Counted from the first letter of the stretch, positions 1 to 20,000 are shown. The stretch is 20,000 nucleotides of DNA from Psammoneis japonica (GCA_008632985.1 QPGO01000004.1:991639-1011638); one strand, 5' to 3'. Translations and numbers: made by a program. The notes: generated from the sequence alone by a model not told the origin.

Positions 1-27
1 CAGATGCCTCGAACAAGAGTTCCTCAC

Positions 28-383: not shown

Positions 384-707
384 TCGCCGGTATCTTCAAT
401 GTCTTGGAGGAATCACGACACCGTACTCAGCACCCCTAAAACAACTGATCCCCGGATAAACCAACAAAAGAGCGCAATCTCATCAACTCCTTTGTGGATT
501 CAATTCTTTTCCCTTTTTTTTAGAACACGAGCGACTACGAGAGAGGATAATCTCGACCAACTTGGAACTTGAAACTGCTCATCGAGTGCGTGTTTTATTT
601 GGCGGGAGTTTGGTCGGTACCGGTACACTGTAAGTTACTGTACGGTAGGTCCGAAATCCTTACTGACGGACGACGGCAAGTCCAATCGTGCTTACGATTC
701 ATACATA

Positions 708-860
708 CATTCATTCGTCCCGTCCGCGACCGACTTTCAATTCATTCGTCCCGCGACTTCGGCTCTCTAGATTATATCAACTACGATATCTTTTGCTCAT
801 TCATTCGTCCCGCGATCGACTTTCAATTTCATTCGACCCGCGACTTCGGCTATCAACTGC
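708..860. repeat. Nested direct repeat in the divergent intergenic region: 4 copies of TTCATTCG(T/A)CC(C)GCGA arranged as two units with ~90-bp period
   Basis: Core copies at 710, 741, 800 and 828. Each larger unit reads core-CGACTTTCAATT-core-CTTCGGCT...TATCAACT. Confidence 0.85.
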
Positions 861-1047
861 CTTTTGTTCATTTTGTTGCTCTCATAATTCAACCAGCAGC
901 AATCTGAACCACAGTTGAGGTTTCTACATCTTTCTTTGTTTTGGAATTTTGTAGCCGATCGTGAGAATGCCTTCCAGTCACCCAAACGGACCGCTTCGCG
1001 AACTTCTTTCAGCGCTTAGTGGAGAAAAACATCGCGAAGAGTCCACC

Positions 1048-1755
1048 ATGTCGGACAATCAAGAAGGTCAGGAAGAAGAGTCTCGCAAGACCGATGCAAG
1101 TGCAGGTGAGACTACTATGAGCGACTTGAAAAAGATTGTTGCCCATCTTAAAAAGCGAGATTGGGCATACTCGGTTGACGAGGACAGAGCCCTGGTTCGC
1201 ACTCAATACAATGGCGTGAACGGCATTTGCCCCGTTGTCATGGACCTAAAAGAAGAAGATCAAATCTTGATCGTATACGTCATTTGTCATACTAGGGTCC
1301 CTAGTGAAAGGCGTCTTGAGATTGCAGAATTCATAACACGTGCAAACTACGGTATTATGATTGGCAATTTTGAAATGGACTTTGCGGACGGAGAGATTCG
1401 TTACAAAGCATCAATCGAATACGTTGGAGGAAAGTTGGTGGAGAAGATGATTGATGAACTTATTGGTAAAAGTGCCTTTACGATGAATCGTTACCTACCG
1501 GGCATTATGAAAGTCATTTATGACGGCAGCATCACGGCAAAAGCGGCAATCGCCGAAATTGAGCCGAGGCAGTCAGCTGGAGATGCAGTTGCAGTTGCTG
1601 TGGCGGAGCTCTTGCAAGTTATCACGAGTGGCGGGACTTCCGGCGAGGATACCGTTGAGATGCCAGCTGTAGACATATCGGAAGAATCTACCCCGAGTAG
1701 CAATACGGAGGCCTCTGTAGTTGTTTTGGGTGATACTTCGCCGGAGGAAGAATAA
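1048..1755 (+). CDS. YbjN-domain protein (putative bacterial sensory transduction regulator family), intronless, with acidic disordered termini
   Basis: ATG at 1048 (CCACCATGT) is in frame with ORF 961..1755. The motif RRLEIAEFITRANYGIMIGNFEMDFADGEIRYKASI is characteristic of YbjN-family proteins. Confidence 0.85.
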   Translation: MSDNQEGQEEESRKTDASAGETTMSDLKKIVAHLKKRDWAYSVDEDRALVRTQYNGVNGICPVVMDLKEEDQILIVYVICHTRVPSERRLEIAEFITRANYGIMIGNFEMDFADGEIRYKASIEYVGGKLVEKMIDELIGKSAFTMNRYLPGIMKVIYDGSITAKAAIAEIEPRQSAGDAVAVAVAELLQVITSGGTSGEDTVEMPAVDISEESTPSSNTEASVVVLGDTSPEEE

Positions 1756-2047
1756 GCTTGACAGATTAAGGAAGTACTAGAGTTACACGCGTTACGTCGG
1801 ATTTCCATTGTAGAATAGTGTAAAGATTGCTTTGCCAAAGGCCATCAGGAGTTCACGGTCATTGAGAAGAATGCATCACCTGTCTCAGAAAAAAAAGATC
1901 GAGATATATCGGTGACGCTACCACCGTTGTACTAAGGTGACAGCACCCCGCTGAAATGCTTCACACTCGCACGTAGACGTGCGGTGAATAGAGCAGAGAA
2001 CTCGACCAGGTAGGAGGCGTTGTCGCTGACGCACGCACCAAAAGGTA

Positions 2048-4900
2048 TCAAAAATAACCCGAGGTCCAGAGGAGAGACGCCAGCTCTTCGCCGAAGAAAA
2101 GGGCAACAGCGCTGTTGAACAGGTCATCGGAGTAAGACGAGCTCGATGGGGTGATTGAGCCGCGTCCTCGCTGTTCCGACACGCCAACTTGGTACCGGCT
2201 CTTAAGCAAAGGCATCAAGGGGCTTTGTGGCCGCAAGCCAAAAGTTTTCTTCAATTTACTTAAAAACTGGAATTCATCGTCATCTACGAAGCTCTTCAAG
2301 CTGATCAAGCGAGTCTCGGCTCCAGACGATTTCACTTTCTTGCTCGCGGTCATCACATTCTCTCCAAGGAAAAGCCTATCGACACCCAAGTTAGACAACA
2401 TGTCATCCATGAAGGCGTGAATGTCTTCGTCACTATTCCCTCTGGATCTTCGTAGGTTCCATCTAGATTCTTCTTCTTTAACCATGACAATCAACCACAT
2501 GAATTCATTCAGCCGCGCCACATGATGAACAGAAGAGCCCGAGGAGCGTCGTACAGCGGGAGGAGAACCTACGTCTTTGCTGGGAACTGCATCAGATACC
2601 CAAGGCATTGATAACGGGGATTTTGGAGGAGACGCGCCTCCGGCGTTGCTTTTGCCGTCAGAACCTGCACCCACCACAATGCTCCCTTGCGAAGGAGGAT
2701 CGGATGGTCGAAACATTTGTATTTTGTTTGTATAGGAAGTTTCAACCAAGGATTCGCTTGTCTCAACAGAACTCGGGAGCATCACCTTTGCCAGACTAGG
2801 CACAAGAGTGTCCCACTCCACATAAGGCCATGAGGGCGATCCTGAGTCTGGTGGGTATTCAAGAACGTTCGTGCGGGCGTCTTTACGCTTTCTAATCTTT
2901 GGGGTCCCACCATCAACAGACCAAGACAGTCGTAAACCCGAAGCGTGGTCCTCGTCTTCTGAGACGTCACGTCTACTTGAGTTTTTAAGAATCTTTTGTG
3001 AGGGTCGAAATGCACCGGATGCAATACCCAACTTGCCTCTTACTCCAGAAGACAATGTGCCCGGGCCGCTAGAACTACAGTGAACAGTTGTTCTCATGTA
3101 GACTGCAGGAAACTGCTCCGTCAATGTTTCTATGTGTCGCCCTTCGTTTTCGAAACCGCGACCAACGTGATAACAAGATGCTTGAACTGCGTCTATAACA
3201 AGGCCGACAGCCATTGGTGATCCGCCTTGGCGACGTATAAACTCTAGAGTTGCGGAATCAAAATCATGAACCAATCCAAGCCTTTCTGAGGAATCGTTCA
3301 GGTTTTTCAGGGCCATCTCCGTCTTGTCGAAACCATATAGAGGAGAACAAAACGCATCGATTCTGTCGAAGAATATCTGCATCACACACAAGAGATGTTC
3401 TAGTGTGCTACGAAACCACATTTGAAGGGTCGTCGAAGCGTTCTTTCGCATGTGAGCCTTGAGAACATTTGCATTCACAACGGTTTCCATAAAGCTTGTG
3501 TCGAAAATAGTAAAAACATTATGTTTCAACACAAAAAAGCAAATGGTAAGAAAGATCAATAACTCAAAGGAGAAGATGTAAGCAAGTACGACGGCTCATT
3601 GGACCGCCGTAAAATCGATACAAGCGTTTCAGACTCATTCAACACTGACCACCCCATGTTCCGGCCAAATATCACAGCAGCGTCACTAGACATACATTTT
3701 GCACATCTGTCGGTTGCAAGAGTGAGAGCGACAAGAAGGGGGCGTCTGCGAAGAACTTGAAAGAAGTGCATGTTTCTCGGCCACAATGAGTGCTTTTTGA
3801 CTGCAATGACTATTCTACGCAAGGTTGATTTGAGAACCCATGAACAAGTCGATCAAAGGTCTCACAGTATACCATGCGGTTCTCGACGAGACGTGACGAA
3901 ACAATGCTCCTTACCTACAACGTTGCAAATGATAAGCCGTTGCCAGTGCAGCAGCCATGGCCTTGGTTTCAGACTTAATACTCTGAATCATCATCATTAC
4001 AGCTTCACAAGCCTGGCTGCTGCCGGTAGATTCGGGGAGGTTCTTGAGTAGCGAACGACATCGCACAGAGAGCTCCAACAAATCTTTCTCCTTGGAAGCG
4101 AGAAAAATGTCGTGATGCAACATGAGCAGTTCTCGTCTTACACTCGTGACAACCATGAAAGTGTCAAGCGCACCGGCGAGAGACAATGCAGCCTTATTCG
4201 ACATGATATGTGTAGATAGTTCGGAATGCTTTTCAGCGCTGCGTGTATCCATCTCAGGTTCGCTGCCCATAAATGGCTTGCACAGTGTCTCCTTTACAAT
4301 TACGAGATCATTTTCAATTTTCTGATAGAGTGACAGCAGTTTGTTACTAGCTCCATACTGTTCCATGTCAAGCACGTGCTCCATTTTGGCATAGATAGCT
4401 TCGGCTCCGGCAAGCAACATGAGAGGCGAAACGTATTTCTGACACTCTCCTTCAATCGCTCTTTCCGACGCGGTGCTTCTGGGAGAGGCTGGAGAAGGTG
4501 GTGTGTTTGTCGGAGTTGACGCAGAAGAAGGGCTACTCGTCGGAGACGATGCAGTCATGACTGTTGCTTCGAGTACTGCAGATGCCGCAGCAGCGTTCTT
4601 CACCGTTGGATCTACCAATTTCTCACAATAGCTTTGTATGCAATCATCCAGCCGAATCAGCAGCAATGTCAAGAAAGGAGTCCGTCGCAAGAGAGGACGG
4701 TGCTTCTTAGAAGATGCCGGCTGTGCCGTCCTGTCCTTTTGCCGGTGCTGTGGGGTCAGCAACCAACCAGGAGCCCAGGCAGAAACACCACCTCGTTTGT
4801 CGGCATCGTCATCACTCGATGAGGTGCGAAAAACTCGGGGCACTGATCTTGATCGAGCAGCTGCCCTGCGCCATGGCGACTGACTTCTTCGAGAAGCCAT
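2048..4900 (-). CDS. KICS2: KICS2/C12orf66 (KICSTOR subunit 2)-like protein; exons 4900-3915 and 3494-2048, intron 3495-3914, ~810 aa
   Basis: Donor AG|GTAAG at 3914 and acceptor ACAAG|C at 3495 join the two ORFs in frame (..HLQRC-S-FMETVVN..). Collinear motifs resemble C12orf66 as I recall it: LLAGAEAIY, LLSLYQKIENDL, LQMWFRSTLEHLL, DFDSATLEFIRR..VGLVID, GRGF, EQFPAVY, HHVARLNEFMWLIVMV, DEDIHAFMDDM. Confidence 0.65.
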
Positions 4901-5350
4901 CGCTCTACTGAGTTACAGGGAAGAGAGTTTCACTTCGTCGATGCGAGCATCCCGTTGCTCTAGACGAGAGCAGAACTTCATGGTCAAACACAAATCACAC
5001 CCGCAAGTTTGGAAGTTGCGTTCGAGTGGAAGGTGGAACGTACGACGGTTGGACCGGAAGTTCTCACCAACATGATCATGGAATATGGAATGCCAATTCT
5101 CGTCGTTTTTAAAATACAGCCCATAAACTACAGTACTGAAGAATGTGTACGTAGAAGCACCAGTGAGTCTACAGCGATAACATTGAATAAATTACGGTAT
5201 GGACATATTTATATAATCTCGTATGAGGTACGACTTCAGGCACGTGCGTAGAGCACAGTAGGAGGTCCACGTGCCAGCAAAATCGCCGCTTGTCTGTTTG
5301 CTTTTACATTTCCTGGCAAAGCCACCACATTTTCCGTGCAAAACACGACC

Positions 5351-8300
5351 ATGGCAAAGCCTGATAGTTCACCCGCTCAACAGAGCGAAGAAGACGAAGA
5401 CAGATGGATAAGACAGCAGCTATCCGAAAGCAACCCGTCACCTGTGCGTTTTAAGCGTTTGAAGCCTCGATTGGGCTCGAACTTTCAGACAAAGGTTGCA
5501 AAGAACCCACTCAAGTCTTTTGTGTCGTCTCGACCTCTGCCGATTCGCATGTCGGCTGAAATGCCTTTCGCTACAGAACAAGAAGTGATTTCTGGGACAA
5601 AACGATCGTTAGGTGAGTCATATTTGTCACTTCTGTGTAAATTTCTGTTTTACTCGCCTGGAACGATCCTACTTGTCCATCTGTATGTTTTGCCTCGCCC
5701 TCGCGGTCAGCGAACCCGTGACTTCGTTATTTTTCTGCCATGGATGGCGAAGACGCCGAGATACCCGGCATAAGTTCGATGCTTCCACCCACTTGTGATG
5801 ATAGTATCACAATGAGCTTTGCCTCGGCTTTAGACTGTCAAAACGCGTCCCCGGACCCATGCCTTCTTTCGTTGCTGCGTTTCTTCTTCCACGTCTTCAG
5901 CGGTACATTTGCGACGTAGCAGATAGTTCTCCCGCTCTTTCGACTTTCAAGACGTTGTTTCTTGCTGTTGCTCCGCCCATGTGTTGATTCCCTTACTTAC
6001 ACTCGTTCTACGGTGTTTCTCGGTTGTTTGTTTGCCACAGACGCCTCCACCGTCGATTCCAATCCGGCTCATCGTCGTGGTGTACACAAAGGTACCAAAC
6101 GTACCCATGACCGACCACCAACCAAACGTGGTGGATTATGTGTTCACCGTCGTAGTTCAGCCAAAGACGCTGATACAAACGACTTTATGCACCTATGCCA
6201 GCGTTTGCTGCGCCCGTCGCACCCAGAGAAGGATGTGTTTGCGGCTGAGGAAGCTTGGAAACAAGAAATGATTAGCCACTACGGGGCATCATCCCAGCCT
6301 TCCCGTCGAGGCAGTGGCGGAGTCGTCACTTCCACCAAGCGTGGTCGCAAGGTACGAAAGCGAAAGTTTGATGACAGTGACGGTGACGAGTCCGTCGCCA
6401 AGGAAGAACCGCAATGGACATTTCTGTCTCGACCAACGAATTCTCATCGACAGCTGCCCGCGACAAGTTCAGAGGATGACCCAAACATTCTCGAGTACCT
6501 CCATCTGCAACATCAAGGCAATGCGGAGATGGCTCGCTTGGCAGTACTTGTGGACATGTCGACAGGTCGGGCATCGAAAGCACGGAAATCTGAAAGGAAA
6601 CACTTACACTCTGAGCGCTTCAAGCAGCCGCTCCTCTCTTCCTCCGACTCGTGGAGGAAGAGGTTTGAACGTACTTTTCCTACCATGCTTGGGACCTTCG
6701 GGAAGACTCTTCTCAGCCTTGCGCATATCCTTATGCAGAGTCGTCGTCTTTATTGGAACCCTCCTGTCACCAGGCTACCGCCATTCCTATGTTCTCAGAG
6801 TCTGTCGACGACATAAAGGCATTTGGAGATCGGTGCTCGCTTACGGACAAACCATGGAACGTTCCATGGATGCAAACGACGATAGCACGAAGCGATACTA
6901 CATGTCAGAGGTGCTGACTTTTGTTAGAAATGCCTACGGCTTACAAATCCCAGAAGAGTCCTTTGGGCAAGACACGTGGTTGTTGAACAAATCTCTCTCT
7001 GCCTGCACGCCATTTTAGATCATGTGTCGAAAGCTCGAGACGTACAGGCGAAGCTAATGGACAAGATGCATGACGAAGACGGAACAGGGGTAGATCTAGA
7101 TGGGATTAAAAGTTTTTTGGAAGAGGCAGATACCAAGTTATCAATCAAGCTGGACGTATCAAAAACTCTTCACCGACTTCTCGAGCTTTCGACTGACTGG
7201 CAAGGCCGGCTAGATAGGATTTTGGCCGAAACTAATAATGACCAGACCGAGAACATGGAGACCACTAAAATTTCGAAAGAGAGCCTGGACACGGCTGAAG
7301 AGCTGGTATCAGAAGCCAAGGGGCACGGACTGAGATCCCAGAGCTTGGTTCTCCTTGAGCAAAAGATCGACAGGGCTTATCGTCTAAGGGATCGCATCAC
7401 TGTCTTCAGTGAATCGCACACTAATGGCAGCAAGGACAGCATTAAGGTCCTCATGTCAATGGTTCGCGAAGCAAATCGATTGGACCTGGCATTTCCTGAA
7501 ATGACACAACTATTGAGTTTTCATCAATCCGTCCAGGAATGGATTGATCGTGCCAACATTGCGATCCGCTCTCGAATGGCCTTGCCTGAGATAGAAACAC
7601 TCATAGAGAAGGGCGAGTTAATGCCAATTGATCTCTCTGAATATCTCGAGAAACTACGATCGAGAGTACGCCTTGCCCACGAATGGATAGAAGAGTTGAA
7701 GCATGAAGTTCCATGCCCGTACCTGCCTTCAACGGAGGCTGATGCAGTTGCGAAGATTGACAAACTTGCTTGGATGAAAAGAATGCGTGAAGCGCTGCGA
7801 AACGTGCAAAGCGGAAACCGAGGCGTCCTTCTTGATTTGGCTTCAGAGGGAAGTCGTATCCCTGTTGAAATAGACTCCGTCAAAATGCTCCAGCTTGAGA
7901 TCGATTCCAAGAATTGGAGTCTCAAGGGGAGAAAGTGGATACCTCAAGTGTGCAACAACGGGGACGTTTCCACAGCGAAAAAGGGGAAGCTCGAGGACTT
8001 ACGCGAACACTATGCCAAGGCCGTTGCTCTGAGAGAAAGACTTGTTCTGTCGGCAGAAGAAAGCAAACAGTGGTCGTCGGAAGGCGAAGCGGAGCTAGAA
8101 TCCATTCTGGATGCTGCGGACAAATGGTTCGAATCTGTAAGAAGCTGCTTTGTATGATTTGAGATCAAATCTTTTTTCTCGCCTACTAACCATTTCTTTT
8201 CTGTTCCTGTCCGCCAGTATCTCGATTACTTGGACGGAGACAATCGGCGGAATCAAGCTCGCAAGCGCATATCGATTGCCACGCTGAGGCAGGTCGTGGA

Positions 8301-11300
8301 CGAAGCGGATAAAATCCATGCAAACATTGGAAATGCTTCTGGGAAGGCCGCACGAATACTTGCCCAGGCTGAAAGCTGGTATGAAAGGCACTACGGTCTT
8401 CTCGTTCGTTGCGGCTTGCGCAAAGCAAAAGATTCCGATTGCCACGTCCCGTCGACGAAACAGCTGGTTTCTGTATCAGAGCTGTCGATGGCGGTGGCTG
8501 AGGCAGCGTCCGAAGTCTCGATGGATTTGGAGGAAGCATTGGAACTGAGTCGTCTGGCGGACAAAATTGAAAAGTGGTTCGAAAGATCTTCCGTTGCAGC
8601 ACCCAAGAGGAGTAAGAGAAGCGTAAAAGGAAAGTTCTCGAGAACGACAAGGTTTTTTCTGGAAGAAGTTGTTTCACTTATCAAGGAGTCTCGGGATCTA
8701 CCTGTAGATACAACAGAAGATCTAGATCGGCTGAAGCTTCAGTTAAGTTTGGCTCAGACATGGAGGTTACAGGCACACATCGACTTGAATGAGATTGCTT
8801 GTGCATTCTCGAAGCTTCGCGAGGTTGTCTTACAGTCATTCGGTAATCCAACTGATTTCCTGAGCGACGAGTCAAGAGTGATGGAGGATTCTGAAGCAGG
8901 CACTTCGGATGAAGACACCACGATGGAGTGCCAAGAAGGAAGTGTTGCGTCTTTGGAATGCGGCGAGGCTATCGGTGGGCGACTTCACAACCCGAAGATG
9001 CATCACCATCAGATTCTGCGTTGAGTGTTGGTTCCGAGCAGGACGCTGCAATTCAACGACGAGTACACGGAGACGTCAGTGTGCACAAAATGATTGATGG
9101 CACTCTGAAGGGGGCACGGAGCATTGGAGTTTACACTGCCGAAGAAAATGTGCTGGAAGTCTTGCAAAAGATATCTAAGTGGTTCGTCCGTTCGGTTCGT
9201 TATCTCAGTTCCCCAAAAGAGGTGTACGAAAGGAAGTACTTCACCATCTTTGATCAGTTTATCGAAACAGGAAGACGCCTTTTCCAAATGAGCAAGAATG
9301 GTCAGGACGAGTTGTGGAGCAAAGTTGATAATGCAGAGTTAATGCAATATCTGAACTCGAGCTGGGGTGAATTGTTGTCTGATCAACTCGTCCGCCTCTC
9401 CATGTTGCAGTCTCACCGTGATGAGTTTATCGCCTGGTCTGCAGAGGCGTCGGAAACGATATCATCTACGGAAAAGAAAGTCACGTTGCAGAATTTAATG
9501 AAGCTTTCGGAACGAAGTCTGAGCTATCCTGCTGGTAAGTCGCGATATTGCTTACGACAGTTTCTTTTTTTTTTCTTTCGAGGGCGTCTCTCATCCACTT
9601 TTTAATTCTCTAAAGCTACGGATATGGTCCAGAAGGTTCGGAACCTGTGTAAACGAGCCACAGCATGGGCAGCTTCGACCAAAGAGCTCCTGGAATCCGA
9701 CAAGAAGCTTTCCATGCAGGAAGCAAAGGAAGTGTTTGATGAAGGAGACAAGCTTAATGTATCCAGTGACGAGTTGAAGAAGCTGCGTCACGCTCTTCGA
9801 GCGGCGCGAAGCTGGGCTGCAAGAGTTAAGAGAAGCAAATTGGACCAGGGTGGCGCTCATATAAGCGACGTCAAGGACTTAATTGAGGAACACGAGACGC
9901 TTCTCGTTTCCATGCCTGATCTCCTACACAAGCTTCATCAAGCGATGAAAAGTTATTGTATCTGTCGGCGCCCATACGAAGGTTTTATGATAGGATGCGA
10001 TTTTTGCGAAGAATGGTACCACTCCAATTGCATTGGAGTGTCTGAATCTCAGGCTGATCGATTCAATAAGTATACGTGTGTCAGGTGTTCGTTGCGCGAG
10101 TCTTCAAAGATAGCTCAGAATCTGTTGCTATGGTAATAAAAAAGTGGACGAATCCAAAGGAATTGAAAAAGTCGCGACAAACCGACTGGTCAAAGCATCA
10201 GCGTAAAGTGAGAAAAGAGAATAGAATTATCGAAAAGCTTGAACCTGAAATTGATATCCTCGAGCAATCACTGAAAAGTTTTGCCGCCCGCGAGAATTTT
10301 GGCGAAGAATCCTGTACGGACAAAGACTGCATCGCCGCTAACTTGCCACCTGATGTGTCGGCATCCCAAAGCCACATTCTCGTATCTATAAATGAGGGAG
10401 CTGGAATGTGCGATTCGATTCCGATTGCTCCATCTGGCAAGCGGACCCGAGATGAGAAAGATGTATCTGAAGGACACCATTCTACGAGCCACCCACCCGA
10501 AGAGCAATCTAAGGTTGAGCCAAAAGGCACCAAACTTAAGAAGGAAGGCTGCGATGCGGAAGGTGCGAAGCCGGTGACGGACAACAGAGCGAATGAAGCA
10601 GGTATGGCTATTTCTTCCATTGCGCCGTTACCACATTTCCAATTTCTTTCCTTGCATTATATCTCACTACTGTCATGTTTCACCGCAGCAGAAATTCGCG
10701 CTAAACTTGAGAAGGCAAAAGCGTCTGTTAAGGATTGCCTCTACCGCCTTGACATCCTGTCTAATAACGCGGCAGTTCTGAAAAGAAAAGAAAAGGAAGA
10801 AGACGAGAAGAGTTCTCTTCTTCAGAGCTGGTGTGTCAGAGTTTGCACATCAGTTCTCATTCCTACGATGGCTGAGCAGTCACAAAGAATTTTTCCTTCT
10901 ACAGATGGTTCAATGTCGACGCCCATGCTGTCAGTTTTACGAGAAGCTAATGATCTTGGTATTGGTCATTTTTCTGACGTATCTGCTGTGTCAAACTCGT
11001 TTGGTTGCATATCCTGGAGTTTGTGCGCAATGCGGATTCTGTCTAGACAGCCATCCATTGCTCAGGCTAACTCGTTGGTTGTACAGAGTTCTTCCATTAA
11101 GCTTCCAGACGAGAAATCGCTGCGGGTGGTGAAGTCCATGCTGCATCGAGCAGTTGCTTGGCGTTCGAAAGTAACACGCGCCCTGGCGCCTAAACCTGGA
11201 GAGAAAGAGCCATGCTGTGTTTCGACACTAAAAGAACTCCTTTCAGATGCTGATAACATTCCACTGATACTTTGTGAAAGAGTTCGCCTGCAAAGTGCCA

Positions 11301-12223
11301 TCGATGATAATGGTACTCGGCATTGCCTATGCGGTGGTCCAAGTGATGGAGGTTTGATGGTAGGGTGTGATGATTGCAACCGGTGGTTCCATACGCGCTG
11401 CGTCAATGTTCGAAAGGATGACAGCAAAGATACGCAGAAGTGGGTGTGTCCACCTTGTGGCGGGATAGAAGCATCAGGTACTACACGAAACTTTGCCGCG
11501 ACTGTCTCTGGGGATGTGGAGCCTCTCCCGGATTCGGCCCATGGTGACGTCGCTCCAAGCGCACCAGATCCGAATAAGTTGTGGCCACCTTTTGGCTTAT
11601 TCGGGTCGCCGGAAGCCCTCGAGATTCTAGGGAAAGAATGTTTGGATCGCATCTACGATATCCACAGCCGAAACAACCTTGCCCACAGTTCACAAACTAG
11701 TAGACCCATCCCTGACCATCGTGCGAGGACGAACGAGTTCGTGGAAGTAATTGGAGTGAAGCGGCCGGAAAACATGGTAGTCAAAGAACAGAAAAAGCTG
11801 ACTGCGTCTTCTGCGTTGCAAGCCGATTCACATCATCAAGTACACACGATATCTGAAGAGAGTGGAAATGAGGCTTCTTCAAAGGGCGACATCACGATCA
11901 GCGATGCCTCGTCTCGAGCAAGCTATGGAGTAGTTTCTGCGGAAGAGACCCTGTACCAACATGGGACTAAACAGAAACCTACGAACGAGTACACCATCGC
12001 CGAAAGCTGTCTTCGGGCCAAGGAAATGCTCGAAAAGGATGTTGCACCTAGTTTGAGTGCGAAAGATGACGTTGCTTCCAAGATCGCGGTTGCATCTGCT
12101 GACAATAGTTTTCAGAAGGCCACAGCGCATTTGATGGACACGAAATTAAGTTGTCTCAAAGAGCTCCCTTTGACAACGCGCTGGAGGTCCACCACAACCC
12201 CGCGCCTCAAATTAAAGAGTTGA
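5351..12223 (+). CDS. Large multi-exon chromatin protein: ELM2-like N-terminal motif, PLU-1-like helical repeats and two PHD fingers. Introns at 5613-6040, 8137-8217, 9535-9615 and probably 10602-10688. The frame is interrupted at several points.
   Basis: ATG at 5351; RLGSNFQTKV motif. GT-AG junctions keep frame (L-D at 5612/6041; S-Y at 8136/8218 with a CTACTAAC branch point; A-A-T-D-M at 9534/9616). Recurrent W-containing helices (DWQGRL, EWIDRA, EWIEEL, SWAARV, AWRSKV) resemble the KDM5/PLU-1 region. Two C4HC3 fingers are present. Confidence 0.8.
9954..10088 (+). other. PHD finger 1 coding segment
   Basis: YCICRRPYEGFMIGCDFCEEWYHSNCIGV...YTCVRC is a canonical C4HC3 finger with the Y, M and W residues typical of H3K4me3-binding PHDs. 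Confidence 0.93.
11321..11458 (+). other. PHD finger 2 coding segment
   Basis: HCLCGGPSDGGLMVGCDDCNRWFHTRCVNV...WVCPPC is a C4HC3 finger. Confidence 0.92.
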
Positions 12224-12375
12224 CTGTGAATGATCCTGCACAGCAAGGCGACCGCATGGGTATCATCCAACAAACACTCTAGAAACTTTACAAACTCTAA
12301 CCAGGTTGGAATTTACGCAGTAGTAACGTGATCCGAAAGACCATAGAGTACTGATTCGCGTCACGGAGTCGCGAT

Positions 12376-14383
12376 TTAAGTTGTACTTTCATTGCTTTCC
12401 TCCATGTTGTCTCGAGCAATAACGTTGTCGTTGTCGAACATTTTCTCCGACTGCTGAATTGTTTCAACAACCTCACGAAAAGCTTTGTCGGCGTCGTAAA
12501 GACTAAGGAGCGCCCAATGAGATTCCTCCAGCGCTTGCAACTGTTGACGAGCAGCTGCGGCCTGCGCTTTTGCACGCCTCAAAGCCACCGCAGCGTCCTC
12601 GACATCCATTTCAATGTTTCGGAGCAATTCTGAGGCTTTACCAGTTCCTTTGTTTGCAAGCAATCGCTTCTTCTGCAGTTCCGCGTCACTGAATTGGTGT
12701 GAAGAAAGCAAAAACATTGCAGTTAGAATAGCAGTGGAAATGCAGACAAGCAGCATTAAGCACCACTTACGCTCGTGCAACTACCATGTTCTCGCGTGCA
12801 AGTTCTTCGCGCTTCTCTCTCGATTCCAACTTTCTTTTCGACGACTGAATCTCCTCAAGAGCATCGAGCGTCGCCTTTGTTCGGGCGTCAATTCCAAGGT
12901 CCCCCGACGGCCCCCAAGCTGCAACTCCACTGGGTGGGACTCTCTCGACAGCTTGTGCTCTATCTATCCATGATCTCTCGGGTCTCTCGACTGAGTCTTC
13001 TGTATCATCATCTCCGACGGAGTCCTCAACAGGTGGAGAATCAGCTATCGCCTCCGTCGTACCTGTGTCAACGTCGTCCACTTCAACGTCCACGACAGAC
13101 GTTGGAGAATCACCTGCAACATATGGGTATCCGTATCCAGTCTCCCTCGTTTCCCCATTACCTCGCGGCCGGCCTCGCTCAACTCTGCCTCTCCCTTTTA
13201 GCCGTCGATTGTACATTTCTGCCTGGTACGACATATCCTCGTCATCTTCTAGATTGAAAAGTTGTCCAACAACATTCCAAGGACCTTTCTTCTCCCTTCT
13301 CATTTGCTTGTCGCTTCTGCGGTCCACTCCCGGGAGAAACCAAGAAGACACTTCATCCGACACCCAGTCGTCTTCAGATCGTATACTCCGGCGCGTAGAT
13401 TTAGAAGCTCATAAGCTTCATCGTCTAGGTCTTCCAAATCTTCAAAGAACTCGACATTATACCCCCCTTGGTCTGGCGATCTCCTTGGTGATCTCCTTTG
13501 TCGGTACGGGGTTGCAAACGGTTCATTTTCTATCGCTTTCAAGTATTCAAGACCATGGAATTTCCCTCTAGTACCACCAAACACTGTTCTATCGCTCGTG
13601 CTTGCAATGTTGTCAGAGTCAAAACCATACCAGAAGAGGCGATGAAAGAATTTGTCCAAGGCGCCAGGTGGCGCTGGTGTCCCTGAACGAAAAGTTGTTC
13701 TAAAAAGCGAAGACGAAGAGATCAGCAACTGGACAAGTGCCCCCGCGACATGATCAACATCGACAAGAACATGTATGGACATACCTTTCCGTGGACCGTC
13801 TTCCACTTCGATTCCTTCGTGGACGACGATGCGGCACAGCAGTTGAGGGAGGTCTTTTTCTCCTTCGTGGCTGGGACGATGCAATACTTTCGGTCGGATA
13901 ACGATCCAATCCTCCTTTCGGGTTGGACCAATAATTCCCGGTTGTGTCATCATTCTCGACATCATCTTGATCATAGTATGCCGAATATTCATCCTCGGCA
14001 TCTTCGTCCTCGCGTGTATCGTAGTATGCATATTCATCCTCGGCATTGACTTCCTCTTCATGACGAGACTGATCTTCGATTTCTTCGTTGGGATCCTCCG
14101 AATAATAGTCGTCATCATTTTCATAACGCATCTCCCGTAGCTCACGAGCTGCATCGCTGTCTCCTACCAGTCTCGTGTCGTAATAACCTGATCGACTGTC
14201 CTCTTCCTCCTGGAACGGGCCCGGCCTTCCAAGAAGATCGCATCGTCTGGTATATCCTGCTGGGGCTCTATTGTGCAGTGCTCTTTTCGAAGCCGGCGAC
14301 GACAAGGGAGAAAATCCACACACTTCGAACAAGCGAGAACATGCCACAATGGATACCCACAATAAACTCAAACCAGACAACAT
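12376..14383 (-). CDS. Uncharacterised, predicted plastid-targeted protein with an acidic N-terminal region and C-terminal coiled coil. Introns at 13700-13784 and 12689-12770; one frame break near 13410.
   Basis: ATG at 14383; signal peptide ending VCG-FSP followed by an S/R-rich transit-like stretch. Splices AG|GTATGT..TTTTAG|A and GC|GTAAGT..TTCAG|T join the ORFs in frame. Heptad-rich C-terminus (ALEEIQSSKRKLE..., AQAAAARQQLQALEE). Confidence 0.75.
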
Positions 14384-14734
14384 TCGGATATGTGTAGTGG
14401 ATTAACAGTGAAACATAGATTTCGAAAGTATGATTGAGCTTCTGACTTGTTCCTATCGATACTTCTTATCGAGTCGCTATAGGAGGGTGATGATATTGAT
14501 GATGTTGAATGATGGTGTATGCGGTGTGGCACTGTTGTGGGTTGTGGTGTGTGTAGTGCGGGGGTGCTTGCATGCAGTGCGTGTGCAGTGCGTGGTATGT
14601 AGGGCCTACGTAAAGTATGTATGGTGTACAGGGTGCGCGCTGTCCGTCCATCGCCAACATCCCCTGGAGGTGAAAATCTCATGCGGTGGTGCAAGTGCAT
14701 CTCAAGATCCCGCCGCCGACGGTTGGGTGTGTTG

Positions 14735-15710
14735 CAAAGGCTCCAACCGCTGCCAGTGCTGACAGCAAAAAGGCTCCCACCACCACCAGACCTGGCATTG
14801 CACAAAGGCTCCAACTGTTGCCAGTGTCAGCAGCAAAAAGTCTCCCACTGTCACCACTGTCAGCAGCAGCAGTGGCACAAAGGCTGCCTCCTGCTGCTGC
14901 GAGTGCCAGCAGCACACACGCTCCAACCCACCACCACACGACCATCAGTGCAAAACGGCTCCCACCACTGCCAGTGCAAGCAGTGCAAAAAGCCCCCCAC
15001 CACCTCCAGCACCACCAGCAGCAAAAAGGCTCCCACAATGCCATGACAAGTTCTGCGGCAGTGTCCAAAGGCTCTGCCAACCCCGCTGATGGTGCAAGCA
15101 GCAGCACAAAGGCTTCCATGACAACCAGCACAAGCAGTGAAAAGGATCAGACTGCCACCAACACCAACACCAGTGAAAAGGCCTGCCGAGTGCCACAGCA
15201 GTGTGCAAAGCCTCCGACCCTGCCACCAGTGCAAACAGTGCAAAGGCTCCCCATGGGATCAGCACAAAAAGCCCACCAACACCACCAACACCATCAGTGG
15301 CAAAAAGGCTCCACCACCAAGTTCCACAGCAGTGCACAAAGGCTCCAACCCCACCACTGTGCAAATGGCACAAATGCTCCCATGGAGTCAGTGCAAGCAG
15401 TGAGAAACTCCCACAACCACCAGTGCAAGCAGCACAAAAAGACTCCCACTGCCGCCAGTGCCGCTGGTGGCAAAAGGGCTCCCACCACCCACCACCATCA
15501 CCAGCAGTGCAAAAGGCTCCACTGCCACCAGCCAGTGCCAGCAGCAACCTGGCTCCATCTGCCACCAGCACCAACGGGAAAAGCTCCAACCACCTCCAGT
15601 GCCAGCAGTCGCAGGTTCCCACTGCCACAAAAGTGCGCCAGTGGCCAGCAGCAAAAAGGCTCCAACCACCACCAGTGCCAGCAACCACCAGGCTCTCACT
15701 GCCATCAGTG
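14735..15710. repeat. Degenerate tandem repeat built on CAAA(A)GGCTCC(C/A)ACCAC...CCAGTGC(C/A)AGCAG
   Basis: More than ten AAAGGCTCC-like cores (e.g. ~14736, 14769, 14804, 15025, 15242, 15304, 15338, 15512, 15655), often 33-40 bp apart. Strong C/A skew on the + strand. Confidence 0.8.
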
Positions 15711-18165
15711 TGCAGCAATCTTTGTTTGTGCATTCGTTGGTGGTCGCAGCCAGCTCTTGCATGCTCCGTGCCATCATCGCCATTTTTGCACTGCTCTGTT
15801 GTTTTACATGCCTTGTCTTCAGCATTCTTTCATGGAGCTGAGAAGACAAAAAATGTCAAGCCATGAACACTCACAACAACGTTGTTGATCAAGAGCTTGA
15901 AGATGCTGCAAGAACCTGCTGTTGAAGCTTTTTGGCTCTTGCTGTTGTGCTGCAGCAGTGCCTGGTTTCGGCAATGCACCAGACTTTCGGGATCTCATTG
16001 CTCAGCAAGAAGGATGATTGACTTGTGGCCATGCTCCAGCTTGATTCTCAACAACCATTGTGCAGCTGTGGTGATGAGAGAACTTGTTTTGTTTGCAATT
16101 GTCGTCAGCTGCGGAACACCTCAGAAGCAGAATCTTTGCCATGCCCCATGCTGGTGTGACTTTTGCAGTTTTGGGTGGTTGAGAAAAACCAATGGGTGCA
16201 CATTGTCTGCAACCTTGGCACAAACTGACATCAATTGCTGAACATCATCAAACAAAAAACATCATGAGTGCTGCATGCACAGGCCACAAAGTCCTTTTTT
16301 GCAGGTGTTGCCTGTCTTGACCAGGTTTTTTCTGGACCCATCTGAAAAGCATCGCTCCAACCATGCTTGCTGGTTGGTCCATGGCATCAGGGAGGAGGCA
16401 CCAACAAATCATGTCAATCCCAGAGCAAGTCACCCTGGCACTCTCAAGGTCAACCATCACTTGGTGGAAGTTTGAATGCTCCACTGCTTCAGCATCCACA
16501 ATGCTTGCTCATCATTTTATGCAGCTTGGCCAACTCAAAACAAAAAAAAGTCTCCTGCCAGTGCCTTGCATGCAAGTTTCCAAAATGCAGCATGAGGGGG
16601 GAAGAGTGCTTCCTTTTCAGAAGCAGCATCAATGACTTACATGATTCTGGCAGTGACAACTGTGATGATGAAAAAATGAGAGTGTCAATTGTGGACCATC
16701 GCACAGTGCCAAGAGGCTTTCACTTGTCTTCAAGCTTTCTGCAATTCTGCATGCACAAGCACAAGTTGTCACAAACTGCACTGACAGAGTGCAAACACCA
16801 AACAGCTTTGGCAGCTGAATGGAGTGTGCTGGCCCCACCTTGTTCATGCAGCATCGGCATTTCAGAATCTGGTTGACAACATTTGCACTTGACATGGACT
16901 CAATTTCTTGGTCCAGTGCAAGGGCTGGTCTTTCAGCAGCCACACAGAACCAACACAGAAACCCTTTCTGAAATTCATTTGTCTTGTGCACAACAAAAGG
17001 GGCTGTTTCCTTGACATGGACTTTTCAAAATTGTGCACGCAAAGCAACGTCTTGTCTGCTCATGATGCAGAGACATGTGAGGGCTGGCACCATGACATGC
17101 CTCATTTGTGAAATTCTTCAGTGCCATGGCTGCACAAGAACACTTGTCTCCCAATCTCAGTTGCCATTCTTGAATGCCAAAGTTGAGCACCTCAACACTT
17201 TTGGACAAAGTGATGGGTCAGTGTGAAGAGCAGAGTTGGCAAGAAACTCAAAGTGACAAGAAAGGCAAAGTGCTTTCCACAACTGGCATTAACTTGGAGT
17301 TGTGCAAGAAATCATGTTCTGCCTCTGCTGCCATTTGCTCCTCTTTTCATGAAACAAAGCTCACAAATTTGGTTGCACATGCACACACATCAAAAGAACT
17401 TCCTTCACAATGTTCACATGGCAAGCACACCACCAGCTGTCACCATCAACTCATGGACCTTGACACTCTCCTTCTTGCTTTCCATCTCAGTGTGTAAATC
17501 AACCAATCCAGAGCAAAAATGCTGCTGCTTGGCATCCCCTGCATGCATGCCCATTGCCATTTTTCTAGGTGCACTAAAAATCATCACCCCCATTGCTTTC
17601 AGTGCTTCTCATGACAATGTTCAGGTGTCAAGCTGACACAGAATTTGTTGACACCAAAAGAACCAATCATTGATGCAACTGGTCCTCCATGCATGCAGCA
17701 GAGGGTCTGCACCAAGTGGAGTGCAGTGGCCCAGCCCTTCATTGTCGCAGTTGTTGTTGCTTTGCATGGATCAGCATGGGCATGCAGAATGCAGAACCAA
17801 AAAAATTTGAAATTCTGGAGCTCTTCAGCACACAAAAGCTGTTCTTGCATTGTGCGCAGTTGCTGCAAAATGTGCATGGGTGTCAGTGGCAATTTGAAAG
17901 CACCAAGTTCCATCAAATGTTCTGCATTGTGCAATCACAGTGTCAATTCTGCACAGACACACAAAAGTGACAGTGATTGAGCAACAAGCCCTTGGGGGGG
18001 AGGGCACTGACCATGGCAGTGTGGGGTGGGCACAAGGATTTGTGTGGCTGTCAGGATGCACTGGCTGCAAGCAAACAAGTGTTTCATTGCATTGTTGAGA
18101 GCACCCACACTTTTGCTCCAACATGGCCAGCAAAGTGACATCCTCCAACAACTCCACAGCCAGAG
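15710..18165. pseudogene. Hypermutated relic sequence, possibly a decayed transposon, viral or duplicated gene; family not identifiable
   Basis: Non-repetitive but TpA/CpG-depleted. The ORF fragments are almost Tyr-free and rich in Cys and His. No recognisable domain. Confidence 0.3.
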
Positions 18166-18166
18166 C

Positions 18167-18668
18167 TGGTTTGGCAAGTTTGGCAAGTTTTGTGAGTTTG
18201 CAAAGCTTGGCAAGTTTGGTGAGTTGGCGAGTTTGGCAAGTTGGGCAAATTTTGCGAGTTTTGTGAGTTTGGCAGGTTTGGCGAGTTTGGCAAGTTTGGC
18301 AAAATTGACAAGTTTGGCAAGTTTGGTGAGTTTGGCAAATTTTGCGAATTTTGTGAGTTTGGCAGGTTTGGCAAGTTTGGCATTTTGCGAGTTTGGCAGG
18401 TTTGGCAAGTTTGCCAAGTTTGGCAAGTTTGGTGAGTTTGGAGAGTTTGGCAAGTTTGCCAAGCTTGGTGAGTTTGGCAAGTTTGCCAAGCTTGGCGAGT
18501 TTGGCAAGATTGGCAAGTTTGCTGAGTTTGGCAAGTTTGGCAGATTTGGTGGCAAGTTTTGAAAGTTTTGCAAGTTTGGAGAGTTTGGCAAGTTTGACAA
18601 GTTTGGTGAGTTTGGCAACTTTGACAAGTTTTGTGAGTTTTGCGAGTTTGGTGGGTTTGGTGAGTTGG
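18167..18668. repeat. 9-bp satellite array 1, unit (A/G)AGTTTGG(C/T)
   Basis: About 500 bp of tandem AAGTTTGGC / GAGTTTGGT / AAGTTTTGT variants. Confidence 0.95.
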
Positions 18669-19230
18669 GTCTGTGGGAAATCGCCATTTTTGCCACCTGC
18701 GTGTCAAAAGTGATGCAAGTCGCACCTGCCAGCACAACATCTGTTGGAAAAGACAAATTTGTTGCCAACACCAACTCACAGAAAAGACATTTTTAGACAC
18801 AACTTTTGATGCAAAAAACTGTGCGAGACTAAAAAAATGTGCAAAGACCCGGATGTGCGCAATTGAAAATGTCCCAACTTTTGTGTTGTGCAGGAATGTG
18901 CCAGGCTTCCATGTGTGAAAGAACCCTCATGTGCATTTTTCAAAATGTGTGACACAACTTTCAAAATGCACAACATGGTCACATTTTTTCATGTGGATTT
19001 TGTGCTGGAAGTCTCGCAGGAATTCTAAAAATGCCCGGATGTGCATTTTCAAAACTGTGGCATGACTTTGATTTGTGTCAAAAGTTGTGTCAAAGTTGTG
19101 TCAAAAACACGCAAGCTTGTCACGTGGAAAAAGCACGTGTGGCCATGCCGTTGGCATTGCAAATGGTCGAAACTCACAGAGACTCTCTGTTGTTTGCTTG
19201 AAAACACGATTTCCTGCAGACCTGCTCAGT
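18669..19230. repeat. Spacer rich in inverted and direct repeats between the satellite arrays (possible non-autonomous element core)
   Basis: 18796-18815 and 19072-19091 are inverted repeats matching at 18/20. A 10-bp perfect IR lies at 18930-18939/18963-18972. CCCGGATGTGC occurs directly repeated at 18848 and 19034. Confidence 0.7.
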
Positions 19231-20000
19231 GGTTTGGCAAGTTTGGCAAGTTTTGTGAGTTTGGCAAGTTTTGCAGTTTTGGCAAGTGTGGTGAGTTTGG
19301 CAAGTTTGCCAAGTTTGGTGAGTTTGGCAAGTTTGCTAATTTTGGCAATTTTGGCAAGATTGGCAAGTTTGCTGAGTTTGGCAAGTTTGGCAAGTTTGGT
19401 GAGTTTTGCTGGTTTGGTGGCAAGTTTTGTGAGTTTTGCCAGTTTGGCAGGTTTGGCGAGTTTGTCCAGTTTGGCAAGTTTGACAAGTTTGGTGAGTTTG
19501 GCAAGTTTGGCAAGTTTGGCAAGTTTTGCTGGTTTGGCGAGTTTGGCAAGTTTGCCAAGTTTGGTGAGTTTGGCGAGTTTTGCGAGTTTGGCAAGTTTGG
19601 CAAGTTTGACGAGTTTGGTGAGTTTGGCAAGTTTGGCAAGAAGTTTGGTGAGTTTGGCAAGTTTGCCAAGTTTTGTGAGTTTTGCGGGTTTGGCAAGTGT
19701 GGCGAGTTTGGCAAGTTTGGTGAGTTTGGCAAGATTGGCAAGTTTGCTGAGTTTGGCGGGTTGTGGTGGCAAGTTTGGCAAGTTTTGTGAGTTTTGCAAG
19801 TTTGGCAGGTTTGGCAAGTTTGGCGAGTTTGACAAGCTTGGCAAGTTTGGCAAGTTTAGTGAGTTTGGCAAGTTTTGTGAGTTTTTCTGGTTTGGCAAGT
19901 TTGGTGAGTTTGGCAAGTTTTGCCAGTTTGGCAGGTTTGTCAGCAAGTTTGGTGAGTTGGCAAGTTTGTGGCAAGTTTGGCAAATTTTGCAAGTTTGGCA
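19231..20000. repeat. 9-bp satellite array 2 (same family as array 1); runs off the window end
   Basis: Same unit and orientation as array 1, starting with the same TGGTTTGGCAAGTTTGGCAAGTTTTGTGAGTTTG. Confidence 0.95.

Follow-up and report, generated by a model that had tools for sequence, protein, structure and literature searches.

A repeat island nearly free of TpA and poor in CpG, best fitted by directional transitions ending in TpG and CpA

The DNA analysed here (the window, 20,000 nt) ends in a block, from ~14.7 kb to at least 20.0 kb, that is a repeat island consisting of an apparently decayed Ser/Thr/Pro-repeat gene copy, a relic, and two satellite arrays with a spacer. A left border zone (14628–14731), TA-free yet CG-rich (9 CG), is followed by a degenerate tandem array of 33-nt units on the + strand (14732–15712; ~28 units, 0 TA), a complex non-repetitive sequence that we call the relic (15701–18160; 7 TA, 16 CG), a first 9-bp satellite array (18166–18655; consensus GTTTGGCAA), a complex spacer between the satellite arrays (18656–19227; 3 TA, 14 CG), and a second 9-bp satellite array with the same unit, GTTTGGCAA (19228–20000); strand is assigned only to the 33-nt array. 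The repeat block adjoins ordinary genes.

An earlier, sequence-only reading of this DNA had placed the start of the biased domain at 14630. The last TA before the domain is indeed at 14627, preceded by G/T-rich sequence (14400–14627) that is TA-rich, with an observed/expected ratio (o/e) of 1.1. However, CG remains common until ~14720 (14636, 14638, 14645, 14652, 14684, 14711, 14714, 14717 and 14720), and the left edge must therefore be given as lying between 14628 and ~14732, where the first array starts. A caveat is that this edge falls at the start of a repeat element, and an insertion or duplication could have brought in DNA that lacked TA beforehand. The right border is not visible, since satellite array 2 continues past the end of the window.

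Across the domain (14630–20000, 5371 nt), TA occurs 12 times versus 361.1 expected (o/e 0.03), at exactly the positions listed in the earlier reading (15805, 16518, 16638, 17290, 17495, 17566, 17575, 18794, 18830, 19026, 19337 and 19857), which had rightly noted that base composition predicts hundreds. Its statement that TA is missing from ~14630 to 15800 also holds, there being none between 14628 and 15804. The scarcity of CG and the excess of TG and CA that it described correspond to 69 CG versus 310.4 expected (o/e 0.22), 606 TG versus 356.7 (o/e 1.70) and 639 CA versus 314.4 (o/e 2.03). As it had said, TA is common in positions 1–14400, hereafter the flank, which contains 508 TA (o/e 0.53) and 873 CG (o/e 1.03). 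The lowest TA count in 2000 mononucleotide shuffles of the domain was 317, and with the expectation set by the flank o/e of 0.53, the Poisson probability of 12 or fewer TA in the domain is 4e-65.

The combined share of TA and CG among dinucleotides falls from 9.59% in the flank to 1.51% in the domain, a drop of 8.1 points, and that of CA and TG rises from 13.7% to 23.2%, a gain of 9.5 points. The total of pyrimidine-purine steps is preserved (23.3% in the domain versus 24.7% in the flank), and G+C is the same (0.485 versus 0.481). Given that the loss of TA and CG is balanced by the gain of CA and TG, with the pyrimidine-purine total and G+C kept, we reasoned that only transitions give such a pattern. 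We simulated this by converting TA and/or CG in the flank to TG/CA and comparing the resulting dinucleotide spectrum with that of the relic by L2 distance. Conversion of both TA and CG came closest to the relic (L2 4.0; 3.8 with an intergenic substrate), followed by conversion of CG only (6.4; 6.9), conversion of TA only (8.9; 8.4) and the unconverted flank (10.8; 10.9). G+C was 0.460 after the double conversion and 0.424 after conversion of CG only, as compared with 0.468 observed in the relic. The misfit left by the double conversion is in GpC, which is too high (7.9% versus 5.6%), and GpA, which is too low (4.7% versus 6.7–7.3%). We conclude that the composition is fitted best by a directional TA to TG/CA change superimposed on ordinary CpG decay.

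The earlier claim that the bias extends over unrelated sequence classes is weaker than it was put, since the consensus units of both arrays are TA-free by themselves; what carries the composition argument is therefore the 2.5-kb relic together with the 0.6-kb spacer. Each of these is significant alone. At o/e 0.53, 92 TA would be expected in the relic (15701–18160) and 7 are present (P 1e-30); for the spacer (18656–19228) the figures are 25 and 3 (P 5e-8), and for the two together ~117 and 10 at the flank's o/e. CA and TG make up 24.2% of dinucleotides in the relic (CA 12.9%, TG 11.3%), and CG there has an o/e of 0.08–0.11. We found no consistent coding frame in the relic, and Pfam searches of the relic (6 frames), the spacer (6 frames) and 4 array ORFs returned no families at or above curated cut-offs, including no viral, transposon, reverse-transcriptase or other retro-element domain. 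The frame +2 read-through had a single library match, to a protein with ankyrin repeats (E 7.7e-6 as the sum over 5 target repeats). The origin of the target may be masked by heavy mutation.

The 33-nt array aligns over 919 nt with 179 mismatches. Its unit translates to KKAPTTTSASS (+ frame), all three + frames finish in a hydrophobic tail near 15700–15888, and the array looks like a decayed Ser/Thr/Pro-rich repeat gene. Consensus CA sites (187 cells) read CA in 124 cases, TG in 18, CG in 10 and TA in 0; consensus TG sites (27 cells) read TG in 15, CA in 7, CG in 1 and TA in 0. With other transitions at 4–9% per site, ~12 TA would be expected in this array and 0 are seen (P 6e-6, a value that, like the others for the arrays, is too optimistic, since units get copied and variant counts are then non-independent events). 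Each of the unit's seven CA steps spans a codon border (NNC followed by ANN), such that C>T would be silent in the KKAPTTTSASS frame; silent changes of this sort are absent from the array. Among the 132 satellite units, 2 TA-making changes are seen versus ~17 expected (P 8e-6, likewise too optimistic). Position T2 of this unit has 4 changes to A and 0 to G, whereas T3 and T4, where A would create TA, have 0 changes to A and 3 to G (Fisher P 0.029, with the same reservation). CTG is found in 3 units, and CCA in 3 units, where the intermediate would be CTA. Unit positions 7–8 read CA in 79 units, TG in 28, CG in 14 and TA in 1, consistent with CpG decay. The absence of TA from both diverged arrays is best fitted by a directional change of TA to TG/CA.

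Parts of the domain are multi-copy, since 150 contigs of a public DNA-type run, which may be the sample behind the assembly of the window, lie on the stretch at 80–100% likeness and depth bins reach 469 and 968, versus 57 in the flank. Diverged relatives of the relic exist both in this run and in an RNA-type run, which appears RNA-like because 82 and 85 nt are skipped with GT..AG ends on the minus strand. Polarising the differences between copies, as the sequence-only reading had proposed, succeeded for CpG and gave little for TA. Our tally comprises 28 in-domain differences among the 40 of 222 listed: in 11 of these 28 the read has CG where the window has TG/CA, and in 1 (16886) the read has TA where the window has TG/CA, with 0 in the opposite direction for either. 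Thus, among the 28 listed differences, polarity relative to relatives is evident for CpG and nearly absent for TA. Ends of RNA-type contigs adjoining the domain contain 5 TA and 6 CG in 150 nt (five 30-letter ends, among the 12 of 85 listed), and one such end matches the window at 13 of 15 letters (16089–16103), with CGCG replacing the window's TGCA. Among the copies of the 33-nt family listed for the DNA-type run, a manual count gives 4 TA across six ends of 30 letters and none across 12 inserts. The second process postulated in the earlier reading, TA to TG/CA, therefore has the composition fit and the TA-free diverged arrays in its favour, but its polarity against relatives is hardly seen (1 of the 28 listed).

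We consider it probable, at roughly 0.65, that two directional, context-specific transition processes overwrote the repeat island, both ending in TpG/CpA. In one, TpA would become TpG or CpA, which on either strand amounts to an A:T to G:C change at a self-complementary step, of the same kind as the region-targeted hypermutation measured in the alga Bigelowiella natans. Each TA would be mutable once and the products would no longer be substrates, so that the loss could run to near completion. In the other, CpG would become TpG or CpA by usual methylated-CpG decay. The TA loss would then have arisen by mutation of the B. natans type, and its agent may be a DNA adenine deaminase that works on DNA which is silenced or duplicated.

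Deamination of 5-methylcytosine is the usual cause of CpG decay in methylated repeats. The block resembles such decay in its CpG deficit (o/e 0.22) with TpG/CpA gain, and in the mixture of CG, TG and CA states at single repeat positions; however, CpG decay alone would lower G+C to ~0.42 and leave TA untouched. In ascomycete fungi, RIP converts CpA to TpA, enriching TA. Like RIP, the block has dinucleotide-specific transitions, sharp borders at repeat edges, repeated DNA as its apparent target and destroyed coding capacity, and the change appears to have run until targets were exhausted. Unlike RIP, it has the opposite direction, with TA removed and CpA/TpG enriched, and we rejected fungal RIP on this signature (TA o/e 0.03, CA 2.03, TG 1.70). 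The Pol-eta WA-hotspot mechanism, a candidate of the sequence-only reading, was discarded since AA is not eroded (o/e 1.40 in the domain versus 1.12 in the flank; AG 1.15 versus 1.06). ADAR-type hyperediting of dsRNA via retrocopies (A>G, 5′ U/A preference) was also rejected, as AA is not depleted and the Pfam searches found no retro-element domain.

Mettrop et al. describe TpA-targeted hypermutation of integrated viral DNA in B. natans mutation-accumulation lines, with 230 of 231 mutations in two regions being A>G or T>C, all at TpA (bioRxiv 10.64898/2026.01.13.699255). Region-targeted, TpA-only A:T>G:C hypermutation, conjectured in the earlier reading, has thus since been measured directly, and the process is not undescribed: the same preprint puts forward both the genome-defence idea and, as its own hypothesis, an adenine deaminase. 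It reports 324 TpA-poor CDS (TpA frequency 0.0018) and 124 clusters, and new mutations at ~1e-7 to 1e-6 per site per generation. From its figures we compute 1.1e-5 per TpA per generation, at which a 97% loss of TpA would take ~3e5 generations. [quoted passage not shown] Unlike the measured B. natans targets, which are viral, the target here comprises tandem repeats and what appears to be a decayed host-like repeat gene; depletion is near-complete, whereas the measured NCLDV region retains 3.3% TpA; and CpG is also lost, the word CpG being absent from the available text of the preprint. The B. natans signature comes from measured mutations, that of the block from composition, the arrays and relatives. 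The idea is therefore not new; what sets the block apart from the B. natans report, as far as its available part goes, is that CpG has decayed too and that the target consists of repeats and is apparently non-viral.

The organism of the window is probably not B. natans. The best protein identities of window ORFs in 5.8 billion sequences were 44% (PLU-1 ORF, 16 matches) and 33% (503-aa ORF, 2 matches). To our knowledge, B. natans proteins and transcriptomes are public, and a near-100% match would be expected were the window from that species. B. natans genes are intron-rich, which the long exons of the window (0.7–2.1 kb) do not fit. Should the window nevertheless derive from B. natans, the block would merely be among the 124 clusters on record. 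A diatom origin, as implied in the earlier reading, is tentative at most. A bolder form of the two-process explanation, which we regard as speculative and unlikely, is that a defence resembling RIP, but reversed, operates in another eukaryotic lineage, which would be a chlorarachniophyte less probably than a stramenopile alga. A single DNA deaminase system, induced and e.g. ADAT2-type (acting on A and C), would be aimed at duplicated or silenced DNA, not only viral inserts, and would turn TpA and CpG into TpG/CpA down to the last site, the block being the saturated end state. An ADAT2/TadA-type enzyme would offer a single-enzyme route to both losses: amphioxus BjADAT2 is reported to deaminate A as well as C in DNA, favouring TCG for C, although the context in which it acts on adenine in E. 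coli is GAA and not TA (PMC10354150).

We consider unlikely an explanation without a deaminase, in which a thymine glycosylase or short-patch repair guarding methylated CpG always resolves G:T mispairs to G:C, such that TA drains into TG/CA by context-specific biased gene conversion. The mispairs would arise as errors of replication or where repeat copies form heteroduplexes, which are plausible given that the repeats are multi-copy in the DNA-type run (150 contigs, bins to 968 versus 57). The losses of TA and CpG have common borders, as expected if both stem from CpG methylation, and CA/TG swaps are frequent (25 swaps versus 11 CG states in the 33-nt array; TG 28, CA 79 and CG 14 at one satellite site). 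In enterobacteria, the scarcity of CTAG is ascribed to very-short-patch repair, which guards methylated cytosines by T:G to C:G repair and in doing so erodes a word containing TA into words with CA or TG. Among mispairs, the preferred substrate of mammalian TDG is CpG·T, then TpG·T. However, very-short-patch repair is bacterial, CTAG-specific, genome-wide and mild, whereas the block is regional and near-complete, and we know of no repeats with TA at 0.03 of expectation in vertebrates or plants, which have heavy CpG methylation and such glycosylases. Moreover, the B. natans signature lies in a single-copy region, with bursts in only some lines, which an induced enzyme fits better than a constitutive repair bias.

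That no special mutation process acted at all, the master copies being intrinsically TA-free, or TA having been removed by selection (against TA-targeting transposons or nucleases, or for a chromatin property), with ordinary CpG decay on top, strikes us as quite improbable. It would account for the TA-free consensus of both array units, for the other listed copies of the 33-nt family being mostly TA-free too, and for the coincidence of the left border with an element edge. It does not account for the relic and spacer (10 TA versus ~117 expected), for the ordinary TA density of the listed ends of RNA-type relatives, or for the missing silent codon-border C>T changes in the array. Selection against TA need not give a CA+TG gain equal to the TA+CG loss, nor keep the pyrimidine-purine pattern and G+C, and selection on ~350 separate non-coding repeat sites would be hard to credit. 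An artefact is very improbable, be it modified DNA that was systematically miscalled in long reads, polishing that went wrong or a chimera with another organism's DNA. Contigs of the DNA-type run match 14941–15251, 15222–15726, 17350–17745 and 17895–18165 at depths of 52–63, i.e. single-copy (flank 57), and share the TA-free sequence, which makes a basecalling artefact unlikely; they carry 2–5 substitutions each per 270–500 nt, to which ordinary TA density would add ~10–17. Depth is present in 30 of 30 bins, including the border-crossing bin 14472–14677 (52.6), and contigs of up to 315 kb with even depth suggest accurate reads. Conversely, gaps between window and contigs number 9–11 per 300–500 nt in the array versus 3 per 2.5 kb in the flank, such that the window consensus may be poorer in the array, and 14477–14941 is unbridged among the pieces listed. 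In addition, 4–5 CG-type differences on near-identical contigs (15048, 17583, 17669, 17674 and perhaps 17315), all CG in the contig and TG/CA in the window, could be explained by miscalled methylated CpG; an artefact would account for part of the CpG deficit at most. The comparison with contigs thus favours a genuine TA-free sequence, but because the run may be the window's source sample, the agreement speaks for accurate-looking contigs and not for independent biology.

Region-targeted TpA hypermutation has so far been described in one preprint and one species, the unrelated alga B. natans. If the two-process explanation is true, the block is a saturated example in an apparent other lineage, on host-like repeats and with CpG decay, which would widen both the taxonomy and the targets. 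It raises the question of whether genome defence couples the deamination of adenine to that of cytosine, and if a natural enzyme exists that edits A within a defined dinucleotide of double-stranded genomic DNA, it would be of practical interest. Genomes could be scanned for TA below ~0.05 of expectation where CA+TG has roughly doubled and neither the pyrimidine-purine total nor G+C has shifted. By the B. natans preprint's own criteria for TpA-poor clusters, 5 of 5 1-kb windows of 15001–20000 qualify (Rho TpA 0.02–0.05, Rho CpA+TpG 1.53–1.97), as compared with 0 of 15 windows of 1–15000.

The terminal block of the window is almost devoid of TA dinucleotides. Positions 14630–20000 (5371 nt) contain 12 TA steps where 361 are expected (observed/expected ratio, o/e, 0.03), and CG is similarly scarce (69 vs 310; o/e 0.22), while CA (639 vs 314; o/e 2.03) and TG (606 vs 357; o/e 1.70) are in excess. 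By comparison, the first 14.4 kb has a TA o/e of 0.53 and a CG o/e of 1.03. The lowest count in 2000 shuffles of the block was 317 TA, and with the TA o/e of the flank as the null the deficit has P = 4e-65. It holds separately for the complex relic sequence at 15701–18160 (7 TA vs 92 expected under the flank null; P 1e-30) and for the complex spacer at 18656–19227 (3 vs 25; P 5e-8). The change is sharp in 500-nt steps and persists to the window end. The deficit is thus real and extreme, and the dinucleotide counts bear out the CG scarcity and CA/TG excess described in the sequence-only reading; the positions it gave for the 12 TA steps are exact, and these are the only ones after 14627, with 14628–15804 entirely TA-free. 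Its left edge at 14630 is right for TA, the last of which lies at 14627, but not for CG, which is frequent until ~14720. The true edge therefore lies between 14628 and ~14732, and the first tandem array begins at this upper bound.

The DNA preceding the block (1–14400) is ordinary and gene-rich. A histone demethylase-like gene of KDM5/JARID type occupies 5962–12223 on the plus strand, with long exons, several PLU-1 matches and two PHD fingers; its closest relatives are only 39–44% identical. It is followed by a minus-strand gene with two introns, 12689–12770 (82 nt) and 13700–13784 (85 nt), which have GT..AG ends and are skipped by contigs of X2, a sequencing run; this skipping suggests that X2 is RNA-like. 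The spliced contigs indicate that the gene is expressed, and its three scanned ORFs contain no Pfam domain. X2 contigs of this gene terminate near 14477, ~150–250 nt from the TA-free block. The intervening stretch (14400–14627), possibly the promoter of that gene, is G/T-rich, with 18 TA (o/e 1.1) and a TG excess of 1.48, and directly abuts the TA-free block.

The block itself opens with a degenerate tandem array of 33-nt units (14732–15712, plus strand), the unit translating as KKAPTTTSASS. Open reading frames in the three plus frames across 14732–15888, 404, 229 and 145 aa long, are rich in Ser, Thr, Pro, Ala and Lys and have a hydrophobic end (…AIIAIFALLCCFTCLVFSIL). The array looks like a decayed copy of a gene for a mucin-like membrane protein, broken by frameshifts, although indels in the consensus may account for some of these. 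The relic is followed by two arrays of a 9-bp satellite with the unit GTTTGGCAA, at 18166–18655 and 19228–20000, which enclose the spacer. In X1, an apparently DNA-type run of the same sample as X2, portions of the block occur in multiple copies, with 150 contigs at 80–100% likeness and bins of up to 968, compared with 57 in the flank.

The sequence was present in one sample, represented by three coded runs, and contigs were compared with the window over 12000–18165. An X1 contig of the flank (5416 nt, word depth 57) terminates at 14477. Short X1 contigs of similar depth (52–63) cover 14941–15251, 15222–15726, 17350–17745 and 17895–18165 with only 2–5 substitutions each. Since a normal TA density would add ~10–17 substitutions per contig, the TA-free sequence is carried by X1 too, and X1 depth is present in 30 of 30 bins. 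X1 is possibly the source sample of the window assembly, no X1 piece among those listed bridges 14477–14941, and gaps between the window and X1 number 9–11 per 300–500 nt of the array and 3 per 2.5 kb of the flank; the TA deficit is unaffected by these limits. At CpG-type differences on near-identical X1 contigs (15048, 17583, 17669, 17674 and perhaps 17315), X1 has CG and the window TG or CA, never the reverse. Hence, part of the CpG deficit may be error in the consensus where CpG is methylated, or else CpG may have decayed very recently in the assembled strain.

The composition of the block points to transitions at both TA and CG. From flank to block, the share of TA plus CG among dinucleotides falls from 9.59% to 1.51% and that of CA plus TG rises from 13.7% to 23.2%, with the total of pyrimidine-purine steps (23.3% vs 24.7%) and the G+C content (0.485 vs 0.481) conserved. 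CpG decay alone, applied in silico, would lower G+C to ~0.42. We simulated the conversion of TA, CG or both to TG/CA in the flank and computed the L2 distance to the 16 dinucleotide frequencies of the relic. Conversion of both came closest (4.0); converting CG only gave 6.4, converting TA only 8.9, and leaving the flank unchanged 10.8. An intergenic substrate gave the same order (3.8, 6.9, 8.4 and 10.9, respectively). The fit is imperfect, in that GpC remains too high and GpA too low.

Divergence within the tandem arrays offers a test that is independent of the ancestral state. Of 919 aligned positions in the 33-nt array, 179 depart from the unit consensus. The 187 cells at consensus CA sites read CA in 124 cases, TG in 18, CG in 10 and TA in none; the 27 cells at consensus TG sites read TG in 15, CA in 7, CG in one and TA, again, in none. 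At the 4–9% per site seen for other non-CpG transitions, transitions alone should have produced ~12 TA (P 6e-6). Each of the seven CA steps in the unit spans a codon border, where C>T is silent; protein-level selection therefore does not explain the missing TA. Positions 7–8 of the satellite (132 units) show classical CpG decay, with CA in 79 units, TG in 28, CG in 14 and TA in one. Changes that make TA number 2 in the satellite, compared with ~17 expected (P 8e-6). T2 has changed to A four times and never to G, whereas T3 and T4, at which A would make TA, have changed to G three times and never to A (contrast with T2, P 0.029), and CTG (three units) and CCA (three units) stand in place of the expected intermediate CTA. 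These P values are optimistic, because units are copied within arrays and the events are not independent. Such patterns are the footprint expected if new TA were rapidly converted to TG or CA.

Related sequences give polarity for the CpG changes but hardly any for TA. Among 40 listed differences (of 222), 28 lie in the block: the relative has CG where the window has TG/CA in 11, and TA where the window has TG/CA in one (16886); 16 are of neither kind, and none runs in the opposite direction. Five 30-letter X2 contig ends adjoining the block, among the 12 listed of 85, contain 5 TA and 6 CG in 150 nt by eye count, matching the ordinary DNA of the genome. One listed X2 end agrees with 16089–16103 at 13 of 15 letters and has CGCG where the window has TGCA. 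For the 33-nt family, the listed X1 copies comprise six ends with 4 TA, of which a single end has 3, and 12 inserts with none. Judging by these ends and inserts, TA and CG are at normal levels in the transcribed relatives, and TA is absent from several of the genomic copies. No X2 contig at least 95% like the block is among the pieces listed, which has no bearing on whether the block is silent.

Wider collections yielded no equivalent. In metagenomes, the 30-letter end of an X2 relative had no match; a degenerate satellite pattern matched 114 stretches. Among the 115 loci compared, one viral contig included, those of at least 1 kb had TA o/e values down to 0.32, the minimum falling in GC-rich DNA, and TA-free runs extended to at most 615 nt; no locus in the ranking by TA o/e showed TA and CG loss together. 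The single match in the viral-contig scan was a 74-nt 9-bp array (4999–5072, opposite strand) whose unit is almost that of the satellite, in the compact, phage-like IMG/VR contig L001. We judged this likeness to be chance, as the TA content of L001 is ordinary (843 vs 944 expected).

A comparable signature has been reported in Bigelowiella natans (Mettrop et al., bioRxiv 10.64898/2026.01.13.699255). According to that preprint, an integrated giant virus (186 kb) and a virophage (25 kb) mutate ~1000-fold faster than the remaining genome in some mutation-accumulation lines; 230 of 231 mutations in the two regions are A>G or T>C, every one of those at TpA, with no C>T excess. It also describes 324 CDS with a TpA frequency of 0.0018, enriched for transposon domains, and 124 mostly unannotated clusters of 1-kb windows poor in TpA and rich in CpA plus TpG, and proposes an ADAT2-like adenine deaminase as the agent. 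The TpA frequency of our block is 0.0022, and the cluster definition, as given there, applies to five of five 1-kb windows from 15001 and to none of the 15 earlier ones. From the preprint's figures we computed 1.1e-5 mutations per TpA per generation; at this rate half of the TpA would be lost in ~6e4 generations and 97% in ~3e5, so saturation as in our block is readily attainable. Our block differs from the B. natans report in its saturated TA loss, in the joint decay of CpG and TpA, and in its target, an apparently non-viral, host-like repeat. In the literature searched, we found no paper linking diatoms to TA loss or RIP-like mutation, and A-to-G hypermutation of transposable elements appeared only in ADAR papers. 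The block is best filed as a further case, probably in a new lineage, of TpA hypermutation known from one preprint.

The organism of the window is probably not B. natans, judging by its genes. Among 5.8 billion proteins, including JGI and MMETSP entries, the PLU-1 ORF has 16 relatives (best 44% identity) and a 503-aa ORF has two (33% and 32%). B. natans proteins and transcriptomes are public, and ORFs from the same organism should match at near 100%; its genes are also intron-rich, which the 0.7–2.1 kb exons of the window do not fit. As a lead only, diatoms are among the few labelled members of the nearest Atlas cluster.

We favour, with a probability of roughly two in three, a directional, B. 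natans-type mutation process at TpA, overlaid on CpG decay in a repeated and probably methylated block. The proposal of the sequence-only reading that a second process turns TA into TG/CA was right in substance, supported by the transition balance and the avoidance of TA in the arrays, but the preprint removes its novelty. The CpG changes are polarised by the relatives; for TA we infer the direction. The agent would be an adenine deaminase that attacks either strand of the palindromic TA step and yields inosine, which is replicated as G; silencing or duplication would be the trigger. Pol-eta-type mutagenesis at WA, also suggested from the sequence, does not fit, since AA is not eroded (o/e 1.40), and neither does ADAR-type editing, on the same ground. 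A repair bias that always resolves G:T mispairs to G:C in methylated, recombining repeats would couple TA loss with CpG loss, but we consider it unlikely. It is conceivable that a single deaminase acts on both A and C: amphioxus ADAT2 acts on DNA, deaminating C within TCG and A within GAA (PMC10354150). Against this, no C>T excess was observed in B. natans.

No match reached the curated Pfam cut-off in six frames each of the relic and the spacer, in four ORFs from the array or in three from the neighbouring gene; the best sub-threshold match was a weak one to DUF5698 in a spacer frame (E 0.0025). No Rfam family or tRNA was matched in window scans. Codon-usage scoring, trained on window genes converted in silico (a converted control gene scored +70.8 in frame), found no consistent coding frame in the relic, with frame +2 weakly best over 16430–16880, 17180–17480 and 17630–17930. 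A full-library search with the 545-aa read-through of this frame gave one match, to an ankyrin-repeat protein, P0019, in which one query stretch (16838–17099) aligns with five target repeats (E 7.7e-6 summed over five). There, frame +2 has a TGA at a place where ankyrin repeats often carry Arg, and Pfam does not detect a repeat; we regard this likeness as a weak lead. Elsewhere in the window, the plus-strand ORF 961–1755 matches the YbjN family (E 3e-5) slightly above the cut-off, an unusual finding for a eukaryote.
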